Positions 10,765 through 55,440 of a DNA stretch of 64,000 bases are shown here, in pieces; position 1 is the first letter of the stretch, and each line of letters begins with the position of its first letter. The position numbers and the translations under genes are program-made. The notes beneath the pieces are model-generated. The model ran no database searches and was not told the DNA's origin. It saw only the letters and a list, made by a program, of their open reading frames with translations. The stretch comes from Bacteroidaceae bacterium (lineage in GTDB: Bacteria > Bacillota_I > Bacilli_A > RF39 > UBA660), in NCBI GenBank assembly GCA_963616135.1, contig CAVEJT010000001.1, positions 76,844 to 140,843 on the forward strand, in the 5' to 3' direction.

Positions 10765-12112
10765 TGCACAAAAAAATATAATTGTTTCAGGAGATATGGC
10801 AACAGGAAAAACTACTAGTGTCTTATTCCCATTAATGGATAAAATGATTGAACAACAAGAAAGTCTAATGATATTAGACTCAAAAGAAGAGTATATAAAT
10901 AAATATTATAAGAATTTAAAAGAAAAGAATTACAATATTGTTGTATTAAATTTAAGAGATTTAGATAAAAGTGATGGATGGAATCCAATTCAAATTGCCT
11001 ATGAATTATATAAAGATGGTAATACAGATAAAGCAATGGATTACTTAGATAAAGTAGCAAAAATAATGTTTTATGAAGAATCATCTGTTGATCCATTTTG
11101 GGCATCAGCTGCATCTGATTTCTTTACAGGAGTAGTTTTGGCATTATTTGAAGATGCAGATAAAGATGAAATTAATTTAAATAGTGTTAGTATGATGTTT
11201 GAAGGAGTTAATGAAAAATTCGGTGCAAGTGATTACTTGACAAATTATTTTAAATTAAAAGATCCAAGTTCACAATCTTATGTTTCAGCATCTACAACAG
11301 TTTTAGCCCCAAAAGAAACAAAAGGAAGTATAGTATCAGTTGCTAAACAAAGATTAAGAACCTATGTTTCAAGAGAAAAATTAAGCATATTGATGAATAA
11401 AACAACATTTAACTATAAAGATATAGCAACCAAACCAACTGCAATTTTCTTTATTGCAAAAGATGAGAGTAAATACTTAAATGCTCTAGCAGCTATGTTT
11501 ATAGAACAATTATTTACTGTTTTATTTGATACGTTTGATTTTAAATCTTCTAACAAATTTAATTTTGTTTTAGATAATTTTGATATTATTGAAAAAGTAA
11601 ATGAATTTACTGATATGCTAAGTTCTGGGTTATCAAAAAGAATTAAATTTACTGTTTCAACTCGTTCCTTAGAAGATCTAACTGCTAAATATGGTAATTA
11701 TATTACAAAATTAAGTAATATAATATATGTTGCTTCTGGATTATTAAAAATAAAAATAGATGATAAAGATGAAACGATTGAGAATAAATTTGAAAAAATA
11801 ATAGACGTTTATAATGAAGTTGATTATCCAAAATTAAACCATGTTTCAATAAAAGTTTTCGATTTAAAAAAGTTTGTAAGAGAAGCAAAGAAACAAGATA
11901 TGGAAAATACTTTTAATGAATTGCCACCATTATCAAATCCATTTCCATCAATGTTAAATGAAGGCAATAAGAATATAGATGATTTATTAAAAAAAATAGA
12001 TGATAAAATTGAGGAATTAGATGCTCAAGAAAAAATGTATAATATTGAACAACAAGAAGAAAAGGTCGAGTCTGAAATTGCTAAGTTTAAAATTGATGAT
12101 GAAACTAAATAA
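10733..12112 (+). CDS. Soluble, probably ATPase-degenerate paralog of the VirD4/TraG coupling protein
   Basis: Walker A GDMATGKTT; VVLNLRDLDKSDGWNPI and DPFWASAAS align with VVLNLVDKSKSDHFNPL and DPFWEKAEM of the bona fide T4CP at 37918..39861; DPKGE replaced by DSKEE and Walker B DEW by DNF; no TM segment. Confidence 0.55.
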   Translation: MKKEMLEKVYNAQKNIIVSGDMATGKTTSVLFPLMDKMIEQQESLMILDSKEEYINKYYKNLKEKNYNIVVLNLRDLDKSDGWNPIQIAYELYKDGNTDKAMDYLDKVAKIMFYEESSVDPFWASAASDFFTGVVLALFEDADKDEINLNSVSMMFEGVNEKFGASDYLTNYFKLKDPSSQSYVSASTTVLAPKETKGSIVSVAKQRLRTYVSREKLSILMNKTTFNYKDIATKPTAIFFIAKDESKYLNALAAMFIEQLFTVLFDTFDFKSSNKFNFVLDNFDIIEKVNEFTDMLSSGLSKRIKFTVSTRSLEDLTAKYGNYITKLSNIIYVASGLLKIKIDDKDETIENKFEKIIDVYNEVDYPKLNHVSIKVFDLKKFVREAKKQDMENTFNELPPLSNPFPSMLNEGNKNIDDLLKKIDDKIEELDAQEKMYNIEQQEEKVESEIAKFKIDDETK

Positions 12113-16114: not shown

Positions 16115-16159
16115 AATAGAAAAACAAAAATGTTTATTTTCTAATTAAGGATAGATGTT

Positions 16160-17083
16160 ATGGATAATAGTATAATAAATATAGGTTTAATAAAAAAAAT
16201 AAATTCTTTCTTAAAAAGAACAAATAGTCTAAAATATTTAGATCCAAACATATTTGAAAATATAGATGAAAGTAAAGAAGTAAATGATATGCCTTTTACT
16301 GATTATTATTTAGAATATATAAATAGTTTGCCAAGATTAGATTTTGAAAATGTAGTTAAAATTTCAAGAGAAGTATATCAATTATATGGAAAAGAAAAAG
16401 ATTTTGATAATATACTAGAAAAATTAGTAAGTAGTTATAGTATAACTGAAGGATCATTAAATAAAGATGATGATAACTGTATAACAAAGGCATCCGAAAG
16501 TAGAGTGTTATTATCTGGAACTTGTTATGATGTGGTGTTGCTATGTCATGAGATAGGACATAAATTAAGATTTGATAATTCTAAAAGCACTTCTGATATA
16601 ATGGATAGTTTTCTCTTTGAAACTCCATCAATTATACTTGAATTGAGTGCAAATGATTATTTGAGAGATAATTATGGCGTTGATATTAAAGCAGATGAAC
16701 TAAGAAAAGCACATATTTTAAGCACTAAAAGAGAAAATGGTGTGGAAAATAATATATTTCAAATTATAATAAGTTTATTAAAAGAAAGAAAATTAAATGC
16801 TATAAACTTATATAAAGAATTTAATAGAGATATGAATATTGTTGAATATCTTAATAAACAAGGTTCTTCTATTGAGGATTGTATTGATGAAGGAATATCT
16901 GCCTACTCATACGATATAGGTTATATACTAGGTACTTATATAAATAATAGTGACAATAGAATAGAATTTTTAAATATGCTATTAAAATATAAGGACAAAG
17001 GAATTAATATGCCGTTCACTATTGAAGAAGGAATTATTAAGACAACATTAGAAAGTCAGAGCATACGAAGCACTAAAAAATAA
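16160..17083 (+). CDS. HExxH metallopeptidase-motif protein (possible ImmA/IrrE-like)
   Basis: VVLLCHEIGHKLRF motif; size and motif compatible with COG2856-like anti-repressor proteases, assignment uncertain. Confidence 0.4.
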   Translation: MDNSIINIGLIKKINSFLKRTNSLKYLDPNIFENIDESKEVNDMPFTDYYLEYINSLPRLDFENVVKISREVYQLYGKEKDFDNILEKLVSSYSITEGSLNKDDDNCITKASESRVLLSGTCYDVVLLCHEIGHKLRFDNSKSTSDIMDSFLFETPSIILELSANDYLRDNYGVDIKADELRKAHILSTKRENGVENNIFQIIISLLKERKLNAINLYKEFNRDMNIVEYLNKQGSSIEDCIDEGISAYSYDIGYILGTYINNSDNRIEFLNMLLKYKDKGINMPFTIEEGIIKTTLESQSIRSTKK

Positions 17084-36599: not shown

Positions 36600-37928
36600 A
36601 TGGATGGTAATGCTAAACACGATTTAGAGCATACTGCTGAAAAATCAGTATCAATGTCTGCAAAGATTAGTAAAATTTCTACCATTTTATTTGGTAGATT
36701 TTTAATAAAAGCAAATCGTTATTATCAAAAACACTTTTCTTCATCTATGAGGGCTTTAAGAAAAGATGGGGCTACAAAAGAATTATGTGTATCTCCACCA
36801 TTAACAAGGGCAGAAGTTAAACAGATTATAACTTCATGTCATGAGAATAATATTCTTATGGGAATTAAAAAAATGCATCCAGATGGAGAATTAAGTAATA
36901 ATAAATCTTTATATCAACAAGAAAAACTTGCTCATAATGAAATTAAGTATAAGAAATGGGATGAAAGACGTAAGGCAACATCAAAGATAAAAATTTTAAA
37001 TAAAATTTGTAAACATCAAGCAGATAAATATAAAAATATTTCAGCATATAATTTGAAATTATCTAATAGATGGTTGTCCTTTCAAGAGAAGACACGTAAA
37101 ATAAAACCCTTAAATAAATATTGTAAGATGAAAGCAGATAATTATAAAAATATTGCTATTCAAGAAAAAACAAAAGATGAAGAGGAACAATATGTTATTA
37201 TTTTTAATAAAAGTAAATTATCATTTTTTAATGAACAATTAGCTAAAATACCACCTAATAGATTAAAGCAAGAAACAAAAAGTGATTTAGATGGTATAAA
37301 TAATGAAGAAATAATTGATGATAGAAATATAGAACCTATGGTTTCAAGAGGTATGAATTTAAGTGTAAATGATCTTAATAAAATAGGTGAAGATTTTGGA
37401 TCATGTCCTGTTAGAGATTATAGTAAAAATTATTGTATTCAAAAAATAACTAAGGAAGAATATTGTGAAATTAGAGAACAGTTATTTGAACTACCAAGTC
37501 ATGGTGCTTGTGTTCTTAATGAAAAAGAAATGATAATAGCTATTCGTTCTGAGGATTTAGATGAATATAGAGAATATGCTCCAGAAAGACCTATAAAGGA
37601 ATATGGTTCATCTGGTGGTAGAGCAATAGAAAGTGAATCTAATATTCATGATATTATGGAATTAGAAATAAATGATATTAAAAGATACAAAGAATTTAAA
37701 GAAACTTATTCATCTAAAGATTATGTGGCAGAAATTGCTCCGAATGGGAAAACTACTATATTATTAAAAGAAACGGATACAAAGAATCTTTTAGAAGAGA
37801 GTAAAAAAAAATCAAAAACAGAGGATTTAGTAAAAGAGGCAAATGAATTAGCAGAAAAGAGTAAGACTGATAAAGTTATTGAAAATGTTGCACTAGAGCA
37901 GAAAGAAGAACAAGAAATTGATCGTTAA
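36600..37928 (+). CDS. Hypothetical protein with internal KILNKICKHQADKYKNI / KPLNKYCKMKADNYKNI repeat
   Basis: ORF overlapping T4CP start; no catalytic motif recognised. Confidence 0.4.
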   Translation: MDGNAKHDLEHTAEKSVSMSAKISKISTILFGRFLIKANRYYQKHFSSSMRALRKDGATKELCVSPPLTRAEVKQIITSCHENNILMGIKKMHPDGELSNNKSLYQQEKLAHNEIKYKKWDERRKATSKIKILNKICKHQADKYKNISAYNLKLSNRWLSFQEKTRKIKPLNKYCKMKADNYKNIAIQEKTKDEEEQYVIIFNKSKLSFFNEQLAKIPPNRLKQETKSDLDGINNEEIIDDRNIEPMVSRGMNLSVNDLNKIGEDFGSCPVRDYSKNYCIQKITKEEYCEIREQLFELPSHGACVLNEKEMIIAIRSEDLDEYREYAPERPIKEYGSSGGRAIESESNIHDIMELEINDIKRYKEFKETYSSKDYVAEIAPNGKTTILLKETDTKNLLEESKKKSKTEDLVKEANELAEKSKTDKVIENVALEQKEEQEIDR

Positions 37929-39861
37929 ACGCAATAAGAAGAGTAGTATTATAATTGTCTTACTAATAATGTTAGTTGCCTCTTATTACACACTTAGAGT
38001 TTGTAGTCTTACAGAAATGGCTGGTAAGTTTGAATTTTCCCAGTTAACTGAAGCATTAGATAAACTTCATATTATTTCTACACCTGTTATTTTAAATATG
38101 AAGACTATTACTACTTCTTTGTTTGTTGGGATATTTACATGGGGAATTATTCAAACAGTTGCAAATCAAAATAAAAAGAATTTGCAAGAAAATACTTATG
38201 GTAGTGCAGAGTGGGAAGATCCAAAAGTAATAAAACCTTACTGTGAGAAAGAATTAGAAAAGAATCAAATATTTACTGCTACTGAAATGTTTGCTAAAAA
38301 TATGCGAATATCTAAAAGAAATAGACATTTAATTTTAATTGGTAGACCAGGAAGTGGTAAATCAAGATATTATTTTAAAGTTAATTTATTAAATGCAAAT
38401 GGAGAAACATTTGTTGTCACAGATCCGAAAGGCGAATTAGTCAGAGATTGTGGAATGTCTTTGATTAATCTCGGATATGATATTCGTGTTTTAAATCTAG
38501 TTGATAAATCAAAATCAGATCATTTTAATCCACTTATGTATATAAAAAAAATCAATAAAACTATTGATAATAGTAAGGAAACTCAAGAATGGATAGCTGA
38601 AGATGATGTAATGACATTAATTAATACTATAATGTTAAATACAAAATCAGAAACTATTGAATCCAATACTGGTGATCCATTCTGGGAGAAGGCAGAGATG
38701 GTTTTTCTTCAAGCAATTATTTATTATATAATTTTTAATTATGATGATAAAGAAAAGAATTTTAAAACTGTTTTAAAATTAATTAGACTTGCTGAACCTG
38801 ATAAAGAAGGAAATTCAACATTGAGTAGAATGTTTGATGTTTGGGCAGAAAAAGATCCAGAAAATATAGGTGTTAAGCAATGGAAACATTTTAAAGTATC
38901 TGCATCATCACCAAAAATGATGAGTACAATCATAATGACTGCATCTGCACGTTTAGCACCTTTCAATATATCTGAAATAGAGTCTATGACTGTTGACGAT
39001 ACAATGGAATTAAATAGAATTGGTGGTAAGGGTGATGAGGGTAAAATTGCTTATTTCATCATTAATAGTCCAAACGATTCTACTTTCAATTTTATGGCTA
39101 GTATTTTATATACACAAATATTTTCAATAATAGATGCCAATGCTAGTAAAAATAATGGCTCTCTTTCTACTCCTGTTCAAATATACTGTGATGAGTGGGC
39201 ACAACTAGGGGTAATCCCACGCTACTTAGAAAATTTGGCTTATGTTCGTGGATTAAATTGTGGAATTACGACGTGTCTGCAAAGTCTATCTCAGTTGAAG
39301 AAGGTTTATAAGGATAATTGGGAAACGGCTTTGGATTGTTCAGACTACGTATTGTTTTTAGGTTCAAGGTCTAAAGAAACTTTAGAATATATGAGTAGCA
39401 TGTTGGGTAAAAAAAGTTGGTATAAAAAGTCTTCTGGTCGTACATATTCAAAACAAGGTTCATCATCTTATAACTGGGATATAGTTGGACGTGAGTTAGC
39501 ATTTGTAGATGAACTTGCAAGAATGGAGAGTGGATATGGTATTTTATTGGTTGCTGGTATGCGACCTTTTTATTCTAAATTATATGATTTAACTAAGCAT
39601 CCTAGATATAATGAACTATTTGAAAGTTGGAATGAAAAGGAAACAATTCAGAATAAATATGATCATTCGATAGAAAGGGGAAAAGATAAAGAAACAAAAA
39701 GAAAACAGCAGATGTTTAGAGAACTAGGATTAGGGTTTGTAAAAGTAAAACCAGAATTTAAAGCAAGAGATTTAACTCAATATGAAGAACGCAAGTTTAA
39801 TGAAGATGCAATTTTGCTTTCTTCTAAGAGTTTAACGGATGAATTATTGGATAATTTATAA
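37918..39861 (+). CDS. Type IV coupling protein (VirD4/TraG/PcfC family)
   Basis: N-terminal TM helices; Walker A GRPGSGKS; VVTDPKGEL; DPFW; Walker B-like IYCDEWAQLG. Confidence 0.85.
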   Translation: MIVKRNKKSSIIIVLLIMLVASYYTLRVCSLTEMAGKFEFSQLTEALDKLHIISTPVILNMKTITTSLFVGIFTWGIIQTVANQNKKNLQENTYGSAEWEDPKVIKPYCEKELEKNQIFTATEMFAKNMRISKRNRHLILIGRPGSGKSRYYFKVNLLNANGETFVVTDPKGELVRDCGMSLINLGYDIRVLNLVDKSKSDHFNPLMYIKKINKTIDNSKETQEWIAEDDVMTLINTIMLNTKSETIESNTGDPFWEKAEMVFLQAIIYYIIFNYDDKEKNFKTVLKLIRLAEPDKEGNSTLSRMFDVWAEKDPENIGVKQWKHFKVSASSPKMMSTIIMTASARLAPFNISEIESMTVDDTMELNRIGGKGDEGKIAYFIINSPNDSTFNFMASILYTQIFSIIDANASKNNGSLSTPVQIYCDEWAQLGVIPRYLENLAYVRGLNCGITTCLQSLSQLKKVYKDNWETALDCSDYVLFLGSRSKETLEYMSSMLGKKSWYKKSSGRTYSKQGSSSYNWDIVGRELAFVDELARMESGYGILLVAGMRPFYSKLYDLTKHPRYNELFESWNEKETIQNKYDHSIERGKDKETKRKQQMFRELGLGFVKVKPEFKARDLTQYEERKFNEDAILLSSKSLTDELLDNL

Positions 39862-47138: not shown

Positions 47139-47366
47139 ATGAATAAAGAATATATAAAAGAATTATTTGAAGAAGAAAAAGAAGTCTTTATCCATCATGG
47201 ATTAGATATAGAAACTCCAGAAGATTTGGAGGATTTTATGGAATCAATTATAATTTCAAATATGCAATTTGAGTTTGATATATCTCCAAATGCAGATAAA
47301 TTATTTAATAGGGATAAAGAAAATACTAAAGAATTATCAAATGAAGATCATGATATAGAAAAATGA
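47139..47366 (+). CDS. Small highly acidic protein (75 aa)
   Basis: Net charge strongly negative (E/D-rich); candidate DNA mimic. Confidence 0.4.
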   Translation: MNKEYIKELFEEEKEVFIHHGLDIETPEDLEDFMESIIISNMQFEFDISPNADKLFNRDKENTKELSNEDHDIEK

Positions 47367-47383
47367 TTTTTTTTACATTGAGT

Positions 47384-47399
47384 GTTTACTAGTGTAAAC
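47384..47399. promoter_or_regulatory. Operator copy 5 GTTTACTAGTGTAAAC upstream of HTH gene
   Basis: Identical 16-mer; followed by AAAGAAAAGGAGAAAAA leader as at copy 4. Confidence 0.55.
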
Positions 47400-47425
47400 A
47401 AAAAGATAAAGAAAAGGAGAAAAAA

Positions 47426-48079
47426 ATGAAAAATAATTATATGATATTAGCAGAAATAATAAAAAATAGAAGAATAGCTTTAGGATATAGTTTAAGGAAT
47501 TTAGCAAATGAAGTTGGTATTAGTCATACAGAACTTGTACGTATTGAAAACGGTAATAGGCAATGTTTAAATACTATTACATTATTAAAAATATGTAAGT
47601 TATTAAATTTAGATTTTTTAACACTTTTAGAAGATGCCAACTTTTATGAAAGAGAAGAGGAAAAATTGTTTTATATTATTGTTAAAAATGCAGAAACAAA
47701 GGTATTTAAAATCCATGCAACTAGTGAACAATCAGCTCTTCCTATTATAATAGATTTTTTATCAGAAAACGATATTATTAAAATAGACGAAAAAATTAAG
47801 AATACATTGATATTTGCCACACCTGATAAAAAAGAAATGCAAACAGTATTGAAAGATTTAAAAGAAAAAAATGAATATGAAATAGCAGAAAAATATAATA
47901 GAATTCCTTGTGAAATTACTGCTGTTTCAGGTGAAGAATTTGAGGATGATTTCGAAGATGATGACTTTGAAAGTGAAGAGTATGAAGACACGGATGATTT
48001 TTTAGGCGATATAAAAATATATTTTGAAATTAATAATTTCAGTGGGAGAAAATCAAATGGACACATTAATAATAAGTAA
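47426..48079 (+). CDS. XRE-family HTH regulator with long acidic C-terminal tail
   Basis: LGYSLRNLANEVGISHTELVRIENGNRQ HTH_3; C-terminus EEFEDDFEDDDFESEEYEDTDDF. Confidence 0.65.
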   Translation: MKNNYMILAEIIKNRRIALGYSLRNLANEVGISHTELVRIENGNRQCLNTITLLKICKLLNLDFLTLLEDANFYEREEEKLFYIIVKNAETKVFKIHATSEQSALPIIIDFLSENDIIKIDEKIKNTLIFATPDKKEMQTVLKDLKEKNEYEIAEKYNRIPCEITAVSGEEFEDDFEDDDFESEEYEDTDDFLGDIKIYFEINNFSGRKSNGHINNK

Positions 48080-48398
48080 TGAAAGTAATATTCTTCATAT
48101 ATCAAATAAAGGTTATACTGTCGATTACACCTTTTATGATTGTAAAGGACACAGTATAGACGGAGGAATATTAGAAAGTGAAAAAGAAAAATTTGATACT
48201 CAAGAAGTTAAAAATGAAATAATAAAGATGTTTGAAGACACAATTGTCTTCTCTCAACCTTATATGATTTTAGAAGGGGATAGAGCAGACAGTCTATTAG
48301 AATTAATTGAAATGGAAGATTATAAAAATACTCAATTAAAAGTAAATGATTTTTTATCTTCCGTTAAAAATAGTTCGTATATTGAACTAGATAAATAA
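48057..48398 (+). CDS. Hypothetical protein (start ATG 48057 after GGGAG; ORF track 48024)
   Basis: Overlaps end of upstream gene; no motif. Confidence 0.4.
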   Translation: MDTLIISNESNILHISNKGYTVDYTFYDCKGHSIDGGILESEKEKFDTQEVKNEIIKMFEDTIVFSQPYMILEGDRADSLLELIEMEDYKNTQLKVNDFLSSVKNSSYIELDK

Positions 48399-48429
48399 AA
48401 AGTAAAAAAAAGAAAAGGAGAAAAAATTT

Positions 48430-48960
48430 ATGAGAAAACAATATGATGATTTTACTCAAATGAAGTTAAAAGAGATGTGCAAATCAATAAGTGATATGAC
48501 TTATACTTATTTAGATCCAGAAACTCATTTGCCTACTAAAGTACCAGCATCACACTATGAAAAAATATTGGATCAAGTTAAAGAACAATACATGGGAGAA
48601 ATAACTAGTAAACAATTTTTAACTATTATGTATAATCAATTAACTGCGTTAAAGAAAGAAGATGACAAATATTTTCAACAAGCATTATTATGTATGGACT
48701 TAGGTATAAATCCAAAAGATATGAGAGTTGATGAACAATTAGCATTGTCTATGACCTATGATTTCATTTATGAAAAACAAAAAAATATGAAAAAGGACTA
48801 CCATTTTTTGGATACAGAAGTTATAAATGCTTATAGAGAAACTAAGGATAATCCTGTAATTCAGGCACAGGCAATAAAAATGTCTACTGATTATGAAGAA
48901 ACTCAAGAGCAAGAAGAATCTATTGATAAAGATGATGATTATGATCTTGATTATAACTAA
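48430..48960 (+). CDS. Hypothetical protein with acidic C-terminus
   Basis: RBS AAAGGAG; tail EETQEQEESIDKDDDYDLDYN. Confidence 0.4.
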   Translation: MRKQYDDFTQMKLKEMCKSISDMTYTYLDPETHLPTKVPASHYEKILDQVKEQYMGEITSKQFLTIMYNQLTALKKEDDKYFQQALLCMDLGINPKDMRVDEQLALSMTYDFIYEKQKNMKKDYHFLDTEVINAYRETKDNPVIQAQAIKMSTDYEETQEQEESIDKDDDYDLDYN

Positions 48961-48983
48961 AATTTTAATAGGAAAAATTCAAA

Positions 48984-49736
48984 ATGACATTAGATAAAAA
49001 CTATATTAAAGATACTTTAAAAAAACTTGGACAAAAATATGGTGTCAGAGAAACTTTTGAAGATTTTGTGTATTGTTGTGCATATTCATTATCTAATTTA
49101 ACAAATTTTAATGATAGCCGTGAAAAAGAATATTTGAATATATCTAAGAAATATGAGAAAGAAGATTTTAATTCATTTGCATCAATGTTATCAGCATTAA
49201 CATTAGAACTTAGCAAAGATGATTGTGAAGATATTTTAGGAAATGTTTTTGAAGAATTAGGTTTGCATGATAAAGGTAGAGGACAATTCTTTACTCCTCT
49301 ACATATCAGCAAATTTATGGCAAAAATTGTATTTGATAAAGAAAATATTCAAAGAGAAATATCAAAAAAGGGTTATATAACAATAGCAGATGAATGCTGT
49401 GGCAGTGGTAGAATGTTATTTGCATATCTTAAATTATTAAAAGAAAACAATGTAAATTTAAATAATGTATATTTTGAAGGGGCAGATATATCAAATCTAT
49501 GTTGCTGTATGACTTATGTCAGTTTATCATTAATGGGAGCTAGTGCAATAATAAATCACCAAAATACATTGTCTTCTGAACGTTTTGGATACTATATAAC
49601 TCCAGGATTAATTTTAAATGAAAATTTAGTTAATAATTTAATTAAAGATGGATATCTTGAATCAACAAAAGAAAATGATTTAAATCAAGAAAATGATATA
49701 AAAAACTTAGAAGAAGAGCAGGAATTAGAAATATAA
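48984..49736 (+). CDS. N6-adenine DNA methyltransferase-like protein lacking motif IV (orphan/possibly inactive MTase fragment)
   Basis: GQFFTP (motif X-like), ADECCGSG (motif I), GADISNLCCCMTYVSLSLMGASAIINHQNTL (pre-motif IV helix) but no NPPY/F; only 250 aa. Confidence 0.45.
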   Translation: MTLDKNYIKDTLKKLGQKYGVRETFEDFVYCCAYSLSNLTNFNDSREKEYLNISKKYEKEDFNSFASMLSALTLELSKDDCEDILGNVFEELGLHDKGRGQFFTPLHISKFMAKIVFDKENIQREISKKGYITIADECCGSGRMLFAYLKLLKENNVNLNNVYFEGADISNLCCCMTYVSLSLMGASAIINHQNTLSSERFGYYITPGLILNENLVNNLIKDGYLESTKENDLNQENDIKNLEEEQELEI

Positions 49737-49763
49737 AATTTTTATGAAAGGAGAAATTATTTT

Positions 49764-50483
49764 ATGCCAAATTGGGTAAAAACTATTGTAAAAACAAAAC
49801 CAGACGTATTAAAAGATATTTTAAAAAAATATTCAAATGAAGATGGTTTTTCATTTGAAAAAGTAATTCCAATGCCTAAGGAATTAGATGTAGAAAGAGG
49901 TAGCAGAGGTCAAGATGGACTTATGTATCTTTTTTTAGAAAATGATAATGGTATTTCTAAGGAAAAAATTAATCAAGTATTTCGTTCATTAAATTCTTTC
50001 TTTTCTGATATTTATAAAGAAAAAAGATTTAAGATGATTGAAGAAAAATATAATGAAAACAAAAATGAAAAAGAATATGTGGAAAGTGTTAAACTTGCCA
50101 AACAATATATTTCTAATTATAACAAATATGGTTATACAGATTGGTATAATTGGCGTTGTGATAACTGGGGAACAAAGTGGGATTTAGCAGAATTAGATTA
50201 TAATAAAGATACTATGATTTTTCAAACAGCTTGGAATTTTGCTGAGAATGTTATATTAGAACTTTCTCGTAGATATCCTGAAGCTGTTTTTGAATGCAAA
50301 TTTGCTGATGAAGGTATACAAGAAAATTCTGGCATATTAAAAATAAAAGATGGAGAAGTATTCGAAGAAAAATACAATTTGGAGATGGAGTCAATTGAAA
50401 AAATTTGGGATTATTATTTAGATGATAGCGAAAAAGAATCATCAAATGAAGAAATAGATAATGAAATTGAAATGGAATATTAG
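49764..50483 (+). CDS. Hypothetical protein with conserved WYNWRCDNWGTKWD motif
   Basis: Trp-rich motif; acidic tail ...EIDNEIEMEY. Confidence 0.35.
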   Translation: MPNWVKTIVKTKPDVLKDILKKYSNEDGFSFEKVIPMPKELDVERGSRGQDGLMYLFLENDNGISKEKINQVFRSLNSFFSDIYKEKRFKMIEEKYNENKNEKEYVESVKLAKQYISNYNKYGYTDWYNWRCDNWGTKWDLAELDYNKDTMIFQTAWNFAENVILELSRRYPEAVFECKFADEGIQENSGILKIKDGEVFEEKYNLEMESIEKIWDYYLDDSEKESSNEEIDNEIEMEY

Positions 50484-50497
50484 AAAGGAGCTAAATA

Positions 50498-51355
50498 ATG
50501 GGACAATATCATAAATTTATGAATTTTGATAAAAAAGAAATTTTAAATCCTCCTGGTCCTTTAAAATTAATGGAATGGAGTTATCAACAAAATGAATATA
50601 TGCTTCAAATAGAAAATCTAATAAAAACATCTTGGAAAGGTGACAGAGTTTTAGTTATTGGAGATTATGCAGATGATTTTTATGAAGGTGCATATTCTAG
50701 TGAACTTTTGAAAACTATACGTGAAGAAAATAAAGAATATGGACTTCATAATATATATGATTACCCATACAAAGAACTTAAAAATACGTCTTTTTACTCA
50801 AATAGATTACCTTCTCGTTATATTTACAATGATTCTATAAAAGAATACATTGATTTAAAAAAGCAACCTATACAATGGGTAGTATATGATGAAAATATTA
50901 ATCTAATAGATGGTGCAAAAATACATCCACTAAGTTTGGTATTATCATGTTGTAATGGTGCAGGTGGAGGAGATTATTACGCACTAAATAATGAAGACGT
51001 TGGTTGTTGGATTACAGATTCAAATAATATTAGTTTTTCAGATGAATTAAAAAAAGGATATACAGATTCTAGATTATTATTTAATGAATTTAGCAAAAAA
51101 GAAAATAACATTGATATAATTATTGATTATATAAAGGAAAATTTTAAAGTTTCAGATATTGGAAAAATAGAAAACATGAAATTTTCACCTTCACTTTTCT
51201 TAGATAAAAATGAAGAAAAATGTATTATAGAAAAATCTATTAGAAAAATAATAAACAAACAAATTGATTTAAAAAACAAGGTTCGAGATAAAGATAAGGA
51301 TGCTCAAGATATTAAGGATTTAGTTGCTAATTATGAAGAAGAATTAGAAAAATAA
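50498..51355 (+). CDS. Hypothetical protein (285 aa)
   Basis: RBS AAAGGAG; no motif. Confidence 0.4.
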   Translation: MGQYHKFMNFDKKEILNPPGPLKLMEWSYQQNEYMLQIENLIKTSWKGDRVLVIGDYADDFYEGAYSSELLKTIREENKEYGLHNIYDYPYKELKNTSFYSNRLPSRYIYNDSIKEYIDLKKQPIQWVVYDENINLIDGAKIHPLSLVLSCCNGAGGGDYYALNNEDVGCWITDSNNISFSDELKKGYTDSRLLFNEFSKKENNIDIIIDYIKENFKVSDIGKIENMKFSPSLFLDKNEEKCIIEKSIRKIINKQIDLKNKVRDKDKDAQDIKDLVANYEEELEK

Positions 51356-51376
51356 CTTTAATGAAAGGGGAATATT

Positions 51377-51574
51377 ATGAATAAACAATTAGATAAAAAA
51401 ATAGAAAGATTAGAAGGGTTAAAGGAAAAAGAAAAAGAAAGAATTAACTCAATAAATCAAGTTATTGCTGAATATGATAAACAATTAAAAGTTTTATATG
51501 ATTTGAGAAAAGAACAAGAAAAAATTTATCAAAGACAACAAGAATTAGATTTAAAAATTAAGGAGCAACAATAA
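51377..51574 (+). CDS. Small coiled-coil protein (65 aa)
   Basis: Heptad-like K/E-rich sequence. Confidence 0.35.
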   Translation: MNKQLDKKIERLEGLKEKEKERINSINQVIAEYDKQLKVLYDLRKEQEKIYQRQQELDLKIKEQQ

Positions 51575-51576
51575 CT

Positions 51577-52521
51577 ATGAGTAGTTATTTCAAGGCAAGA
51601 GATGAATTAGTAAAGATGTATGTTAAAAGTTTAGAAGAAGGAAAAATCCCCTGGGAAAAAATGTGGCAAACAAGTATACCAGAAAATGGAATTACTGGAA
51701 AAAAATATAAAGGAATTAATAATTTAATTTTATCTTACGTAGCACTTCAAAGAGGTTATAAGGATGCAAGATGGTGTACTTATATTCAGATTAAAAAGAA
51801 TAAATGGAAACTTAAAGATGCAAAAGGACAAGGTGTTTGCATTGAATATGTAGGTATGAAAAACAAAAAAGATAATAAACTTTACTCCTTTGAAGAGTAT
51901 AAGAAAATAATTAATGACTTCCCAGAAAAAGAAAATGAATTTTCAATAAGAAGGTATAACTATATAGTATTTAATGCTGATTTAATAGAAGGTATAGAAA
52001 AGAATAATGATGTCATTAAAGAAAAAATAATTAGTAATGATTACATCAGTAATATTATTAAAAATATTGGCGTTAAATATCAAGAAAAAGGAGAACAAGC
52101 ATATTATGATATACTTGCTGATGAAGTAGTTATACCTCCTTCTAATACTTTTAAAAGCACTTATGCTTACTATTCAACACAATTACATGAAATTGCCCAT
52201 TCAACAGGTCATCATACTAGATTAAATAGAGATATGAGTGGTGAATTCAGATCGGAAGCGTATGCAAAGGAAGAACTAAGAGCAGAGATTGGTTCTTCTT
52301 TTCTTATGCAAAAATTAGGATTAGAATATGATGAAAGGCATTTGAATAATCACAAAGCTTATGTAAGAGGTTGGTTGGATATTATAAAAAACAAACCTCA
52401 AGAATTATTTTTAGCAATCTCAGATGCTAATAAAATTGTTTCATATTTAGAAGATAAAAGTTTATCGAAAGAACAAAATATTTCAAAGGAAATAGAAGAA
52501 ATGGAGATGGAATATGCGTAG
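51577..52521 (+). CDS. ardC: ArdC-like antirestriction protein (ssDNA-binding N-domain + HExxH metalloprotease C-domain)
   Basis: KYKGINNLILSYVALQRGY (ArdC-N YxGxNxxxL motif) and QLHEIAHSTGHHTRLNRD zincin motif. Confidence 0.7.
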   Translation: MSSYFKARDELVKMYVKSLEEGKIPWEKMWQTSIPENGITGKKYKGINNLILSYVALQRGYKDARWCTYIQIKKNKWKLKDAKGQGVCIEYVGMKNKKDNKLYSFEEYKKIINDFPEKENEFSIRRYNYIVFNADLIEGIEKNNDVIKEKIISNDYISNIIKNIGVKYQEKGEQAYYDILADEVVIPPSNTFKSTYAYYSTQLHEIAHSTGHHTRLNRDMSGEFRSEAYAKEELRAEIGSSFLMQKLGLEYDERHLNNHKAYVRGWLDIIKNKPQELFLAISDANKIVSYLEDKSLSKEQNISKEIEEMEMEYA

Positions 52522-53782
52522 CATTCATAGTAGACATTATATTTATACACATTGGTTAAGAATTGATATGAATAATGATGAAATAAAGCAATGGGAACAA
52601 TTAAAAAATTATTGGAATAAATATGATTGTTCTATGACTGTATATTATTATGATTATAATCCTTTAACAGAAAAAGCAATTAAATTAGATTGTAATCAAT
52701 CATATCAAGATTTAGATCTTGATGTTAACTCTATGTCCTCTGGTAGTTTAAAAAGAGTAAAAGCAAAACCAACAAATATAACAGTATATAATAAAGGAAT
52801 TGAACATTTTTTTGTTAATAAGTTAGGTCTGGAAGTGTTAGACACACTACGAAAACCTAAGTCTAAAATTAATGTTCCAGAAGATCAACTTATAACAGTA
52901 GATGTTTTAAGTGAATTTGGCAGAATGAAAAATATAGAAAAGTTTAATGAAATAATGAAAGAAGAAGACTGGAAAATTGTTAAGATACCAAGTGATGTAA
53001 GTTATCATTATCAATTGTATTTTGGAAAAGGAAAACAAGTATATAATAGGTACGAATACGCATTTAATGATTTCACATTTAAAAGTAGATTTAAAGATAG
53101 ATTAGAGAGATTTGTAAATAATGTAGTAAAACAAAAAGAATTAAATTTGGATAATTTTATTGGGAAAAAAATAAATATGTTTGAATCAAAACATCAAATA
53201 TCAACAGATAAAAAAATTAATATTGATGTTAAATGTATAGGATTAGTTTTAGGAATAAATAATAATTGTTTTGATATATATGATTTTCAAAGACCATTAG
53301 GTGAACAATTTTATTCACTAAATTTAAAAGACTTTGAGCAAAAATTTAAAGCAGGGATTTATAAACCAAATTTTAATTTGTTAACATCTTATGAAAAGTT
53401 AGAATTAAGAAAATATATGTATAATAAAGCAAAAAAATTTACAAATCTTTGTGCAGATTGGGATTATAGAAATATAGATATGACGGATATACATTTAGAG
53501 TCTTTGAAGATTCAAAAAAACAAAATTTCTCTTTCGTGTGAAAAATATTCAACAAAATTAGATACTTATATTTCTGCCGATATATTTGAAATTGAATCAA
53601 AAGAATTAGTAGATGAATTTAATATGATAGATTTAGAAAATAGAGAACAAGTTCTAAACTTTGCATCTAAATTAGAAAGTTATATTGATTATGATAAAGC
53701 AGAAATATTACTAAATGAAAAAGAACAAAATATGGTTGAAGAAAAGAAAAATTTAGAAGAAATGGAGATAGAATATGACTGA
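52514..53782 (+). CDS. Hypothetical protein (422 aa), start overlaps upstream stop
   Basis: Translationally coupled via conserved GAAATGGAGATGGAATATG junction. Confidence 0.4.
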   Translation: MRSIHSRHYIYTHWLRIDMNNDEIKQWEQLKNYWNKYDCSMTVYYYDYNPLTEKAIKLDCNQSYQDLDLDVNSMSSGSLKRVKAKPTNITVYNKGIEHFFVNKLGLEVLDTLRKPKSKINVPEDQLITVDVLSEFGRMKNIEKFNEIMKEEDWKIVKIPSDVSYHYQLYFGKGKQVYNRYEYAFNDFTFKSRFKDRLERFVNNVVKQKELNLDNFIGKKINMFESKHQISTDKKINIDVKCIGLVLGINNNCFDIYDFQRPLGEQFYSLNLKDFEQKFKAGIYKPNFNLLTSYEKLELRKYMYNKAKKFTNLCADWDYRNIDMTDIHLESLKIQKNKISLSCEKYSTKLDTYISADIFEIESKELVDEFNMIDLENREQVLNFASKLESYIDYDKAEILLNEKEQNMVEEKKNLEEMEIEYD

Positions 53783-54656
53783 TATTTTAGATATTTATGA
53801 AAGTTTGGCAGATTCAATAGAAGAAACAGAGGAATTTAGAATTTATGATTTTATAAATTATTTGGGTATTAATGTTGTTGATAAGGATTTACCAAAGGAA
53901 GAAATAACAAGAATTATAAATATATGTAGAGAATGTACAGATAATTTTATTGATCCATTTAAACTTGCCAAATCTTTAACTTCTGCTATATATGAGGAAG
54001 AATATTTAACATTAGATGAGTTAGAACGTATACCTTCAGAGTCTATAAAATATTTTTATTCTAATGAAAAAATGGATGAATTAGAATATTATTTTGAATC
54101 GTATCAGGAAATTTTAACTTCAACAAAAGAAATATTAGCTGGATATTCTTATACAATTGGTAGAGTGGTTCAGGATGGTTATTGTGTTGAACTCCATTAT
54201 TGTAGTGATAGAGGAGCAACTTTAGAATATGGAACAAAAACATCTCATGATTGTTGGGAAAATGAAGTTGAAGAAGCAGAATGGTTTAATACAAATTTAT
54301 CAGATGACTATATTATAAACAGATTGAATTGTTTATATGATGAAGAATTTTCTAGTAAGGAAATATCAACAGAAAAAACAGAAGAATTAAATTTAATCGA
54401 TCACATTTTATCAAATCATAAGGTAAATGACATCACCTTATATTTAGATGCTGAAGGAAATTTATTTGCATTTGATGATATTAATTGTTGGAAGAACAAT
54501 GAATTTTATGACTTTATGTTTAATGAATTATTTGTATATAATCAAGATGGAAAAGTAGATTTAATAGATGATTCTGATTATAAAAAATTAGAAGAATATA
54601 GAAATAACTATAATGAAAAATCAAATGATTTAGAAATGGAGATGGAACATGAGTAA
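53775..54656 (+). CDS. Hypothetical protein; N-terminal domain paralogous to the two downstream 110-aa proteins
   Basis: YDFINYLGINVVDKDL...ICRECTDNFIDPF...AIYEEE aligns with 54649 and 54981 products. Confidence 0.4.
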   Translation: MTDILDIYESLADSIEETEEFRIYDFINYLGINVVDKDLPKEEITRIINICRECTDNFIDPFKLAKSLTSAIYEEEYLTLDELERIPSESIKYFYSNEKMDELEYYFESYQEILTSTKEILAGYSYTIGRVVQDGYCVELHYCSDRGATLEYGTKTSHDCWENEVEEAEWFNTNLSDDYIINRLNCLYDEEFSSKEISTEKTEELNLIDHILSNHKVNDITLYLDAEGNLFAFDDINCWKNNEFYDFMFNELFVYNQDGKVDLIDDSDYKKLEEYRNNYNEKSNDLEMEMEHE

Positions 54657-54981
54657 GGTAAATGAATTAAAGAAATTAGCAAAAGAATTTTATAAATATA
54701 ATTTTAGTATATATGATTTTTGTTATTATTTAGGATTAACTAATGTTAAAGAAGATATTAATGATAAAGATTTAGAAATTTTGTTAAATAAATGTTCTGA
54801 ATTAAGTGGAGAATATACTGATCCAATTGAAGTAGGACAATCATTAGCAAATTTAATCTATGAAGAAAAAAGTATTACAATAGATAAATTAAAAACACTA
54901 GATGCTGAAAGATTTAATGATTGGTATATTGATGGTAGAGAAGTAGGAAATGAATTAGAAAAAGAACAGGAGATGGAATAA
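54649..54981 (+). CDS. Small protein, member of tandem paralog family
   Basis: YDFCYYLGLTNVKEDINDKDLEILLNKCSELSGEYTDPIEVGQSLANLIYEE. Confidence 0.4.
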   Translation: MSKVNELKKLAKEFYKYNFSIYDFCYYLGLTNVKEDINDKDLEILLNKCSELSGEYTDPIEVGQSLANLIYEEKSITIDKLKTLDAERFNDWYIDGREVGNELEKEQEME

Positions 54982-55313
54982 TGAATATTATTTTTGGATA
55001 TAAAACCATGCCAGAATGGCACAAAGAAAATTTAAAAAACTATTATATTTTAGATGGAATTTATAAAGTTTCGCCAGACATTGATGAAGAGGATGCACAA
55101 TTTATTTTTGATATTTGTAAGAATGTTAAGAATGAAAAAGTGAATCCTTTTTCTATTGCACATTATTTAACTGAACACTATCTTAATGGTGATATTTATA
55201 AAGAAGAATTAAAAAAAGCAGTTTCTGGTGAAATTATTTCTGCTGTTTATTATGATGATTTAAATTATTTACCATTATTAAATGACAGAAATGAAATAGA
55301 AAGAAGTAAATGA
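54981..55313 (+). CDS. Small protein, member of tandem paralog family
   Basis: YYILDGIYKVSPDIDEEDAQFIFDICKNVKNEKVNPFSIAHYLTEHY. Confidence 0.4.
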   Translation: MNIIFGYKTMPEWHKENLKNYYILDGIYKVSPDIDEEDAQFIFDICKNVKNEKVNPFSIAHYLTEHYLNGDIYKEELKKAVSGEIISAVYYDDLNYLPLLNDRNEIERSK

Positions 55314-55339
55314 TATTAAGTAAAAAAAAATAAACCGTC

Positions 55340-55440
55340 GGGGACTATATTTGCAGGTCTTAGGAGTTCGTCCTAACAAGTGATGGGTGTGTCAACACCA
55401 TGCTTGATAGAAAAAATAAGACTATTAAATAACCTCAGTT
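55340..55440. promoter_or_regulatory. Candidate oriT region (GC-richer island with inverted repeat TTAGGA gttcg TCCTAA at 55360..55376)
   Basis: Only sizeable non-coding gap upstream of mobC-like/relaxase genes; local GC spike and hairpin. Confidence 0.3.

Follow-up and report, generated by a model that had tools for sequence, protein, structure and literature searches.

A repeated gene junction in an integrative conjugative element of gut Bacilli probably encodes both an acidic C-terminal tail and the start of the next gene

The window analysed here (64,000 nt) is an integrative conjugative element of an uncultured gut Bacilli bacterium in which a 19-nt sequence recurs almost unchanged at successive gene boundaries, and this repeated junction is probably a dual-coding gene boundary under two superimposed constraints. 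At the peptide level, most proteins of the surrounding gene block end in an alternating acidic/hydrophobic tail, [DE]-h-[DE]-h-[DE]-[Y/H/K/R], placed behind a variable linker. At the RNA level, wherever the next gene begins inside this tail, the tail codons supply GGAG and ATG, with a stop overlap of 8 or 11 nt, and a terminating ribosome could re-initiate on the next gene. The two layers can be separated and are conserved, and one deletion has taken place at the repeats. The junctions link ArdC, three or four genes without an assigned role, and a putative oriT, in the following arrangement (tails are written to their last residue before the stop):

37918-39861, coupling protein
47139..55313, forward strand, establishment/anti-defence block of 13 small genes with mostly acidic products, between the T4SS genes and the putative oriT
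50463..50483, forward strand, tail-only copy, GAAATTGAAATGGAATATTAG, encoding the EIEMEY end of a DUF1281_C protein
51577..52521, forward strand, ArdC-type anti-restriction gene (ArdcN + MPTase-PolyVal, HEIAH)
52493..52521, forward strand, junction J1 from ArdC to the 422-aa gene, TAGAAGAAATGGAGATGGAATATGCGTAG, ArdC tail (I)EEMEMEYA
52514..53782, forward strand, gene of the 422-aa protein, with J1 and J2 at its ends
53754..53782, forward strand, junction J2 from the 422-aa to the 293-aa gene, TAGAAGAAATGGAGATAGAATATGACTGA, tail EEMEIEYD
53775..55313, forward strand, 293-, 110- and 110-aa genes with paralogous N-termini
54628..54656, forward strand, junction J3 from the 293-aa to the first 110-aa gene, ATTTAGAAATGGAGATGGAACATGAGTAA, tail LEMEMEHE
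54962..54983, forward strand, junction J4 from the first to the second 110-aa gene, AAGAACAGGAGATGGAATAATG, tail EKEQEME, TAATG with a 1-nt overlap at 54981
55325..55410, unstranded, putative oriT, conserved and non-coding, right after the block and ahead of NikA-like and relaxase genes
62689-63963, integrase, the only one in the window

Members of the block include an N6_Mtase fragment, DUF1281_C and ArdC. By its sequence the last of these is an ArdC, combining an ArdC-N ssDNA-binding domain (Pfam ArdcN, 2.1e-17) with a zincin-like metallopeptidase (MPTase-PolyVal, 2.2e-37) in which the HExxH motif reads HEIAH, and it matches the R388 ArdC structures 6i89/6sna (E = 1e-26). The R388 protein aligns to residues 13-297 only and itself ends at the fold boundary, so that the last 17 residues of the window ArdC (linker plus EEMEMEYA) form an appendage beyond the solved fold. 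Searches of Pfam, PHROG and PDB folds returned no match for the 422-aa protein, the AlphaFold2 model of which is confident overall, with mean pLDDT falling to ~67 for residues 411-420 and ~50 for the last two. The 293-, 110- and 110-aa proteins, for which a family search gave no match, are paralogous over their N-terminal ~90 residues (29-31% identity). Within the putative oriT, a hairpin reading TTAGGA...TCCTAA covaries, appearing as TTAGGG...CCCTAA in relatives, and is followed on its 3' side by a near-invariant stretch, GGGTGTGT[C/A]AACACCATGCTTGATA, with a single variable position (A in locus L009).

An earlier note on this DNA had described a near-identical junction at four consecutive boundaries, and this observation is confirmed, J1-J3 having 0-1 mismatch to GAAATGGAGATGGAATATG and J4 being a degenerate copy. 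The exact 19-mer GAAATGGAGATGGAATATG lies at 52498-52516, and copies with one mismatch lie at 53759-53777 (ATA for ATG) and 54633-54651 (CAT for TAT); allowing up to three mismatches adds a fourth site at 50463-50481. Four matches compare with 0.07 expected, a number reached in none of 100 dinucleotide shuffles. A repeat search returned the degenerate fourth junction at 54962-54980 as AAGAACAGGAGATGGAATA and a 24-nt version common to J1 and J2, TAGAAGAAATGGAGATRGAATATG. J1 is kept in L001-L007, L009, L012 and L015, and J3 has TAT in the close relatives L027 and L030, making the 19-mer there the same as at J1. The stop-start overlap proposed for all four boundaries is borne out, with the next ATG 8 nt inside the upstream gene in three cases and 1 nt in the fourth. 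So is the double use of the sequence, since the 19-mer both places GGAG 7 nt before the next ATG and encodes an E-M-E-(M/I)-E-(Y/H) tail. At J1, where GGAG is formed with the rare GAG codon, the ATG is at 52514 and the TAG stop at 52519-52521; the corresponding positions are ATG 53775 and TGA 53780-53782 at J2, and ATG 54649 and TAA 54654-54656 at J3. The same-strand overlaps 52514-52521, 53775-53782 and 54649-54656, each with an SD well placed in the upstream coding sequence, have the features of overlapping genes.

Likeness of this kind might mean no more than that coding sequence rich in A/T and in Glu and Lys codons contains generic GGAG ribosome-binding sites, and a stricter null was obtained by comparing all 1953 pairs of 22-nt upstream regions from the 63 genes of the window, which average 8.0 +/- 2.4 identities. 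J4 is no more similar to the other junctions in this comparison than generic ribosome-binding sites are to one another. The sites at 49738 and 51355, listed as related junctions in the earlier note, turn out to be unremarkable ribosome-binding sites of the AAAGGRG type within short spacers; a search with ATGAAAGGRGAA at up to one mismatch gives 6 matches vs 2.6 expected. In addition, the 19-mer matches a viral collection eight times, at about chance frequency, and most of these hits are plain ribosome-binding sites of unrelated phages. J1 and J2, however, share 20 of 22 positions, the top score of all 1953 pairs and about five standard deviations above the mean, and J1-J3 (16) and J2-J3 (15) stand within the top seven.

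The tail provides independent grounds for setting the generic explanation aside. Starts of [DE]h[DE]h[DE] within the last 8 residues (43/788 positions) are enriched 52-fold over internal starts (53/50,879), and tails occur at similar frequency whether the next gene overlaps (20%), follows after 6-35 nt (20%) or lies more than 35 nt away (14%), which makes the tail independent of next-gene overlap. In the window, [DE]-hydrophobic-[DE] is found in the last 5 residues of 10 of the 13 block proteins compared to 4 of 50 elsewhere (Fisher p = 1.8e-6), although the p-values here and below are inflated because orthologues in different loci are not independent. An AT-rich Fusobacterium plasmid (31% GC) with tightly packed genes around its ArdC-domain gene has such tails on 0 of 13 proteins, whereas they are present in L032 at 52% GC, on an ArdC fusion (DEEYELEL), a 204-aa protein (SDYEFEL) and the MobL relaxase (SSFELE). 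Together with the shuffles and the pair ranking, these observations already refute the generic reading for J1-J3, and we regard it as a highly improbable account of the repeats.

The tail is also conserved. When columns are scored by residue class in the 422-aa family, conservation reaches 95-97% in the tail, apart from one hydrophobic column at 55%; over the 14 columns before it, where indels are frequent, it is 34-63%, with a single column at 97%. The J2 tail is kept in 60+ homologues down to 42% identity. In homologues down to that identity E/D and M/L/I/Y swap freely, the tails compared including those of 120 homologues of ArdC. Besides ArdC (DEIEMEM in L033), tails of this type end DUF1281, SSB and relaxase proteins and methylases, one of which (DIEMEFM, L033) is followed by a 370-nt spacer. 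Moreover, tails follow a style within each element: EMEhEY in the window, ELEMEY in L012, EELEH in L026, YEhEL in L032 and IEME(F)M in L033. Among 150 distant representatives of ArdC the tail is present on only 7, indicating that it is specific to certain element lineages and is not a general feature of ArdC. The tail behaves, by sequence, like a short linear motif common to unrelated proteins, and from these conservation statistics we infer that it has a function.

The tail-only copy at 50463, which does not appear in the earlier note, encodes EIEMEY with GAA for every Glu codon and without GGAG, the next gene having its own AAAGGAG 3' of the stop. The peptide motif therefore exists apart from a ribosome-binding-site function.

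The start signal, for its part, goes with a following start. GAG makes up 13% of the Glu codons in the window but is used at the GGAG position in 4 of 4 cases, and its share of Glu codons is 35% in tails overlapping or directly adjoining the start of the next gene compared to 7% in spaced tails (p = 3e-9). GGAG built from GAG, with an ATG overlapping the stop by 8 nt, is confined to tails within which the next gene begins, 8-nt overlaps being the commonest type in this element family. The codon that gives the AT of the overlapping ATG specifies Y in 22 and H in 3 tail-type junctions, with no case of N or D; at other 8- and 11-nt overlaps it specifies N (6), D (2) or Y (3). A hydrophobic codon ending in G followed by Glu GAG yields ATG-GAG or TTG-GAG, and an aromatic codon ending in AT followed by G yields TAT-G or CAT-G; because Met is encoded by ATG alone, peptide and ribosome-binding site are inseparable at that position in ATG-GAG. 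Predicted SD pairing at the junctions (-7.9 to -8.6 kcal/mol) is only average for the window (median -7.9), so that selection for strong initiation is not evident, and the junction RNA is unstructured (MFE -1.8 to -5.3 kcal/mol, z -1.4 to +0.1). The junction probably also starts translation of the next gene, and the overlaps suggest translational coupling by re-initiation.

Recombination at the repeats does occur. In most of about 20 related elements (42-99% protein identity) the order ArdC-422-293-110-110-oriT is kept; the exceptions are L001, without the 293-aa gene, L026, with one gene more, and the most divergent loci, in which different genes follow the 422-aa gene. In one lineage, represented by four independent assemblies (L001, L028, L029 and L031), an 874-bp deletion removes the 293-aa gene exactly between the J2 copy at its left end and the J3 copy at its right end, with the crossover inside the repeat. 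This is the single deletion event of its kind among the relatives examined, and no shift in divergence is seen across its breakpoint.

The deletion is what would be expected if the junction were a recombination linker and genes were gained, lost and shuffled between copies of one site. Several further observations favour such a cassette model. A search of related elements for the junction between different gene pairs, as the earlier note proposed, gave such a case in L025, where GATATGGAGATGGAATATGAATAA links an NT5C-like gene to ArdC; in L026 an additional 336-aa gene stands between ArdC and the 422-aa gene, flanked by look-alike junctions; and a second indel, of a 177-aa gene (L001, 16672-17137), has both ends in SD regions. 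J1 and J2 are also more alike within elements than between them (permutation p = 0.006; 0.03 on seven lineages), and establishment genes of pLS20-family plasmids are reported to be mosaic and variable (PMC8708921). Nevertheless, we consider this model unlikely. Gene order is largely maintained, deletion is confined to one lineage, the common identity spans merely 12-21 nt with no dedicated recombinase or hairpin site present, the peptide motif occurs without the junction and, at 52% GC, on different DNA, and no spread of the 19-mer to other element types was seen in the viral collection. Of the cassette-like assembly or recombination proposed earlier, the recombination is partly supported, and assembly of cassettes is not the likeliest cause of the similarity; conserved synteny argues that recombination is a consequence of the repeats and not their origin. 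Integron cassettes (attC) were also considered and rejected, there being no inverted-repeat hairpin at the unstructured junctions, no adjacent IntI-type integrase and a largely conserved order; the sole integrase of the window lies at the element end, as expected for element integration. In mosaic phage genomes, conserved boundary or linker sequences mark gene junctions and deletions arise between short direct repeats. The window resembles these in that short repeats at gene ends coincide with a precise gene-sized deletion, and differs in that one event only is seen and that other constraints account for its repeats, which are part of coding sequence.

A tandem duplication of paralogous genes, in which each gene start took its junction with it and the junction then persisted, would fit the N-terminal domain shared by the 293-, 110- and 110-aa proteins, all three of which are preceded by the motif. 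As a full account this is quite unlikely and is already insufficient on its own. No DNA similarity can any longer be detected in the coding sequence on either side, yet the junction remains 17-19/19 identical, which requires strong selection in any case. Furthermore, J1 precedes a gene without evident similarity to the paralogues, the repeats lie in the 3' ends of the ArdC, 422- and 293-aa genes, which show no evident mutual similarity, and the tail is shared with DUF1281, methylase, SSB and relaxase proteins.

Under the dual-coding interpretation, near-identical 19-mers arise and persist at several boundaries because few sequences satisfy both layers, and we think that this small sequence space explains most of the near-identity. 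An old duplication of the downstream genes and some within-element homogenisation may contribute; the excess likeness of J1 and J2 within elements requires gene conversion or co-variation besides simple convergence. As a side effect, entire genes can be lost precisely and in frame between the repeats, leaving both GGAG and the stop-start overlap undamaged.

Translational coupling through overlapping stop and start codons, with the SD in the upstream gene, is classical in the trp operon and in phage operons, where overlaps are usually 4 or 1 nt. The junctions described here likewise lie on one strand, with ATG 8, 11 or 1 nt inside the upstream gene and a GGAG 7 nt upstream that is encoded by codons of that gene, the rare GAG being used where a start follows. 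They depart from the classical cases in that 8- and 11-nt overlaps dominate, 19-24 nt are reused at consecutive boundaries, and the upstream peptide is itself conserved and present also without a downstream start.

For the peptide, acidic C-terminal docking tips offer one comparison, as in SSB (DDDIPF), the tails of phage T7 gp2.5 and gp4, and the tail of F TraD that binds TraM; several proteins use one type of tip to reach a single partner. The window tails similarly consist of a variable linker and a conserved tip in which acidic residues are combined with hydrophobic or aromatic ones, and in the related element L025 the SSB has IDLDEEIDR as its end, in that element's own tail style. Unlike the SSB tip ([DE]3-[IL]-P-F), the window tails have no Pro-Phe, and 1-2 further residues usually come after the aromatic one. 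As a short, extreme C-terminal motif on several unrelated proteins encoded with a T4SS, the tail also has the form of a type IV secretion signal. Effectors of the Legionella Dot/Icm system carry a Glu-rich C-terminal 'E-block' bound by DotM of the coupling complex (PMC5802825), and in both cases a Glu-rich motif sits at the extreme C-terminus of many unrelated proteins encoded beside a type IV secretion system. Dot/Icm, however, belongs to a Gram-negative pathogen and is of type IVB, strict acid-hydrophobic alternation is not described for it, and no DotM homologue was identified in the window element. VirB/D4 and F-type signals have a net positive or hydrophobic C-terminus (PMC11288057), whereas the window tails are strongly acidic. 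Polyvalent proteins of phages and conjugative elements join 2-15 conflict-related domains in one polypeptide, and ArdC and TraC1 are reported to be transferred with DNA (Iyer et al. 2017, PMC5512222). The elements examined here share with them ArdC-N, MPTase-PolyVal, N6/N4 methylases, LPD1, LPD16, DUF3846 and primase, but as separate overlapping genes, each with its own tail; in some polyvalent fusions, E-F-D-L-[DE] falls exactly at the end of the ArdC module.

The locus is a clear example of dual coding, in which one 19-mer is constrained both as peptide and as translation-initiation region, and this double constraint lets near-identical DNA recur at gene boundaries without recent copying. 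Whole genes can be lost without disturbing the GGAG or the stop-start overlap of the operon, which bears on the rapid turnover for which establishment genes are known. The more interesting part is perhaps the tail itself, given its presence on many anti-defence proteins of unrelated elements. Little is understood of the way in which Gram-positive-type conjugative elements provide their DNA with anti-defence proteins on entry, and we know of no sequence signal for protein delivery in such systems. Our leading guess is that the tail serves as a shared docking or transfer tag for a common partner such as the coupling protein. As a tentative possibility, it could be an address by which anti-defence and establishment proteins from separate genes are brought to a single receptor in the conjugation machinery, the coupling protein being the most plausible one. 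ArdC, methylases, SSB, DUF1281 and unassigned proteins would be candidates, together with the relaxase in some elements, and they would be delivered or positioned alongside the single strand as it enters. An alternative partner would be the MPTase peptidase of ArdC, because the motif marks the ArdC module end in some fusions. If the address reading is true, the tagged proteins would be a split-gene counterpart of polyvalent proteins, the within-element likeness of tails on unrelated proteins would reflect co-evolution with the receptor, and the signal would, to our knowledge, be the first described for conjugation systems of Firmicutes-type elements. A C-terminal tag on most proteins of the oriT-proximal block, recurring across base compositions, makes this a concrete hypothesis that can be tested by mutation.

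The window is an integrative conjugative element with a GC content of 25%, and its predicted genes lie nearly all on the plus strand.

Landmarks of the element (window position, feature)
33534: DnaG-type primase
37918-39861: VirD4-type coupling protein
41685: VirB4-like ATPase
44102: CHAP hydrolase
47139-55313: block made up of 13 small genes, lying after the T4SS genes and before the relaxase; among them are an Xre-type regulator, an N6_Mtase fragment, a DUF1281_C protein and ArdC (ArdcN plus MPTase-PolyVal)
56007: NikA-like protein
56761: MobA/VirD2-type relaxase
Element end: sortase and tyrosine integrase

Within the block, ArdC is followed by four genes outside any family, the last three of which (293, 110 and 110 aa; 53775-55313) are N-terminal paralogues that share a domain of ~90 residues with 29-31% identity. 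The last of this trio evolves fastest, with DNA identities of 89-92% compared to 97-98% for its neighbours. Searches of Pfam and PHROGs yield no family assignment for the 422-, 293- or 110-aa proteins, a megablast comparison of 49700-55400 with a plasmid collection gives no matches, and an Rfam scan of the window finds no RNA families. Scanning for promoters and terminators is uninformative at 25% GC, with 73 promoter-like sites where 84 would be expected. The 422-aa protein (52514-53782) has 68 homologues, all from the present element family, and AlphaFold2 models it with confidence (pLDDT 85, pTM 0.71), but the model has no match to PDB folds better than E = 0.02; it looks like a conserved, uncharacterised establishment protein. 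Within 47372-47397, a perfect palindrome, GTTTAC-TAGT-GTAAAC, follows a gene ending in DIEK and a T-run and lies shortly before the Xre-type HTH gene (47426). The T-run and GTTTACT also occur in relatives, behind two different tail-bearing genes (for example at ~5782 and ~8804 in locus L004), and the palindrome may be an operator or promoter of establishment operons. The block ends in a conserved non-coding stretch (55325-55410), bounded by the second 110-aa gene on one side and the accessory and relaxase genes on the other, which is likely the oriT, including the nick region. It contains a hairpin, TTAGGA-GTTCG-TCCTAA, that shows a compensatory change to TTAGGG-ATAT-TCCCTAA in two related loci (L012 and L024), and 3' of the hairpin lies the near-invariant GGGTGTGT[C/A]AACACCATGCTTGATA, in which the single variable position is A in L009.

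An earlier note had claimed that the same junction is reused at four consecutive gene boundaries, which correspond to ArdC/422-aa (J1), 422-aa/293-aa (J2), 293-aa/first 110-aa (J3) and first/second 110-aa gene (J4). The sequence GAAATGGAGATGGAATATG is present at 52498-52516, with copies carrying one mismatch at 53759 and 54633 and three at 50463, and 0.07 matches would be expected in shuffled sequence. A repeat search also picks up a degenerate copy, at 54962, and extends the match between the first two junctions to 24 nt. Among the 1953 possible pairings of the window's 22-nt upstream regions (mean 8.0 +/- 2.4 identities), J1-J2 is the highest of all with 20, and J1-J3 (16) and J2-J3 (15) fall within the top seven. 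The repeat is therefore real and exceeds chance for three of the junctions; J4, a TAATG overlap, is ordinary in this comparison, and the supposed related junctions at 49738 and 51355 are just plain AAAGGRG ribosome-binding sites. The proposed dual use of the bases is borne out at J1-J3, where the upstream gene reads GAA ATG GAG AT(G/A) GAA (T/C)AT Gnn Txx, encoding E-M-E-(M/I)-E-(Y/H)-x-stop, and the same bases supply the GGAG and the next ATG, the latter made up of the final two bases of the Tyr or His codon plus the G after them (8-nt overlap). Programmed frameshifting was rejected on reading the sequence, since there is no slippery site and the GGAG lies at least 12 nt from the stop.

Related loci comprise 15 from gut metagenome-assembled genomes (labelled as uncultured Bacilli, Tenericutes, Mollicutes or Clostridia) together with further metagenome loci. 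Most of these elements retain the order ArdC-422-293-110-110-oriT and the overlapping junctions, over a range of 422-aa protein identity from 99% to 42%; the order differs in L001, where the 293-aa gene is missing, in L026, where an additional gene separates ArdC from the 422-aa gene, and in the most divergent loci, where different genes follow the 422-aa one. The predominant overlap lengths are 8 nt (47 cases) and 11 nt (13 cases). The encoding of GGAG varies (ATG-GAG, TTG-GAG, GAG-GAG, AAG-GAG, AGG-GAG, GAG-GTG-GA), and one orthologous J3 lacks GGAG altogether. As a separate observation, L026 carries after its relaxase (14269-16191) a 640-aa EF-G-like gene with GTP_EFTU, EFG_III, EFG_IV and EFG_C domains, which looks like a cargo tetracycline ribosomal-protection gene.

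The encoded tail is more widely distributed than the repeat. Members of the 422-aa family end, for example, in EEMEIEYE, ELEMEYD, EEELEYE, EEELDYEK, DEMEMDF or IEMDIDAY, and ArdC homologues of 54-89% identity in EMEMEYA, LEMEMV, EMEMDI or EIDYEK. Other block proteins in the window end in DIEK, ELDK, DYDLDYN, QELEI, EIEMEY and EELEK, and other proteins in the relatives in DMDYDY, FDLER, EIDIER, LEIEI and EEIDR, the last being an SSB. Conservation by residue class in the 422-aa alignment is 95-97% in the tail columns, except for one hydrophobic column (55%), whereas the preceding linker is variable in length and only 34-63% conserved (one column, 97%). The 5-mer [DE]h[DE]h[DE], where h is hydrophobic, is enriched 52-fold in the last eight residues, and its frequency is the same for an overlapping next gene, one within 35 nt or one further off. 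In the window, 10 of the 13 block proteins have [DE]-h-[DE] within their last five residues, compared to 4 of 50 others. AlphaFold2 places the tail of the 422-aa protein at the low-confidence end of the terminal helix, and that of ArdC lies beyond the end of its solved fold. Long ArdC fusions (P0248, P0250, P0261, P0277, P0298, P0330) have E-[FI]-[DE]-[LI]-[DE], mostly E-F-D-L-[DE], at residues ~300-306, immediately where the ArdC/MPTase module ends, which is the tail position of stand-alone ArdC in this element family. The SSB of L025 (3374-3727) terminates in NINIDLDEEIDR*, in the acidic-hydrophobic style of the element rather than the canonical SSB tip D-D-D-[IL]-P-F.

Codon usage separates the peptide from the RNA signal. 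GAG accounts for 13% of the window's Glu codons but fills all four GGAG positions; across nine lineages, its share of tail Glu codons is 35% where the tail overlaps or abuts the next start and 7% where a spacer follows. In the 50463 copy (EIEMEY*), which has its own ribosome-binding site behind it, every Glu codon is GAA. Although Tyr, His, Asn or Asp codons could each supply the AT of an overlapping ATG, tail-type junctions employ only Tyr (22) or His (3) and other overlaps mostly Asn or Asp, which places the choice of an aromatic residue at the level of the protein. AT-richness as the origin of the tails is ruled out by a 31%-GC Fusobacterium plasmid, whose tightly packed genes around an ArdC-domain gene have no such tails, and by an element of 52% GC (L032) with DEEYELEL* on an ArdC fusion, SDYEFEL* on a protein of no known function and SSFELE* on a MobL relaxase. 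L033 has DEIEMEM* on ArdC and DIEMEFM* on a methylase. Given the codon usage, the tail-free plasmid and the tails at 52% GC, we conclude from these sequence comparisons that the tail is a feature of the peptide. Met is probably frequent within it because GGAG needs a codon with G in last place, and ATG offers this for a hydrophobic residue while being AT-rich.

Recombination at the junctions, also proposed in the earlier note, holds in part. Locus L001 is 97% identical to the window but has no 293-aa gene; J2 and J3 both align to its bases 11245-11265, and a three-way alignment shows J2 markers (ATA, TAT) left of the ATG and J3 sequence (AGTAAGG) right of it. Three more human-gut contigs have this structure and two have an intact 293-aa gene, which is present in most more distant relatives, thereby indicating a single, precise deletion lineage. 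Import of foreign DNA at the breakpoint was rejected, given that the flanks to either side are each 97% identical and that lower identity is confined to the fast-evolving last gene. Gene conversion of J3 is likewise unsupported, its 2-3 differences per 19 nt from the orthologous J3 matching the overall divergence of ~20%. Ribosome-binding-site regions are found at the ends of other indels that distinguish the window from L001, too. The gene-sized differences between the two are truncation of the N6_Mtase gene in L001 (window 48985-49342), a 910-bp insert in L001 with a 204-aa ORF adjoining the oriT (55302-55320), the absence from L001 of 2.3 kb with paralogous gene starts at both bounds (58507-60855), and a 177-aa gene missing from the window, with breakpoints in two SD regions (61572-61581). 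In L025, the junction GATATGGAGATGGAATATGAATAA stands between an NT5C-like gene and ArdC. J1-J2 likeness is slightly greater within than between elements (p = 0.006; 0.03 for seven lineages), as would be expected from some homogenisation, or from co-variation with a shared partner. As a sequence, the 19-mer is not mobile; it is present in eight viral contigs, about the number estimated for chance, and there mostly as a simple ribosome-binding site. The reading in the earlier note is half right.

We adopt a dual constraint as the probable explanation, in which a conserved C-terminal peptide motif is overlaid with the initiation region for coupled translation. Tail codons would double as the initiation region of the next gene, and occasional precise gene loss would be a side effect of the resulting repeats. 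Leading regions have been reported as tuned for translation (PMC13478746), which would fit the coupling layer although it is no test of coupling. As to the tail itself, E-F-D-L-[DE] marks the ArdC module end in several fusions, so one of two candidate readings, the second in rank, connects it with the MPTase peptidase. The most attractive reading, based on analogy, is that the tail would be a shared docking or delivery tag, because transport of ArdC and TraC1 along with the DNA has been reported (PMC5512222), leading-region proteins of the F plasmid pass through the T4SS (PMC8406263, PMC11288057), and the Legionella coupling complex binds Glu-rich C-terminal signals (PMC5802825). Polyvalent proteins have the same domain repertoire, which is here split into genes with a tail on each. 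We found no earlier description of the shared tail in the literature searched, and we regard it as a more valuable result than the junction repeat itself.
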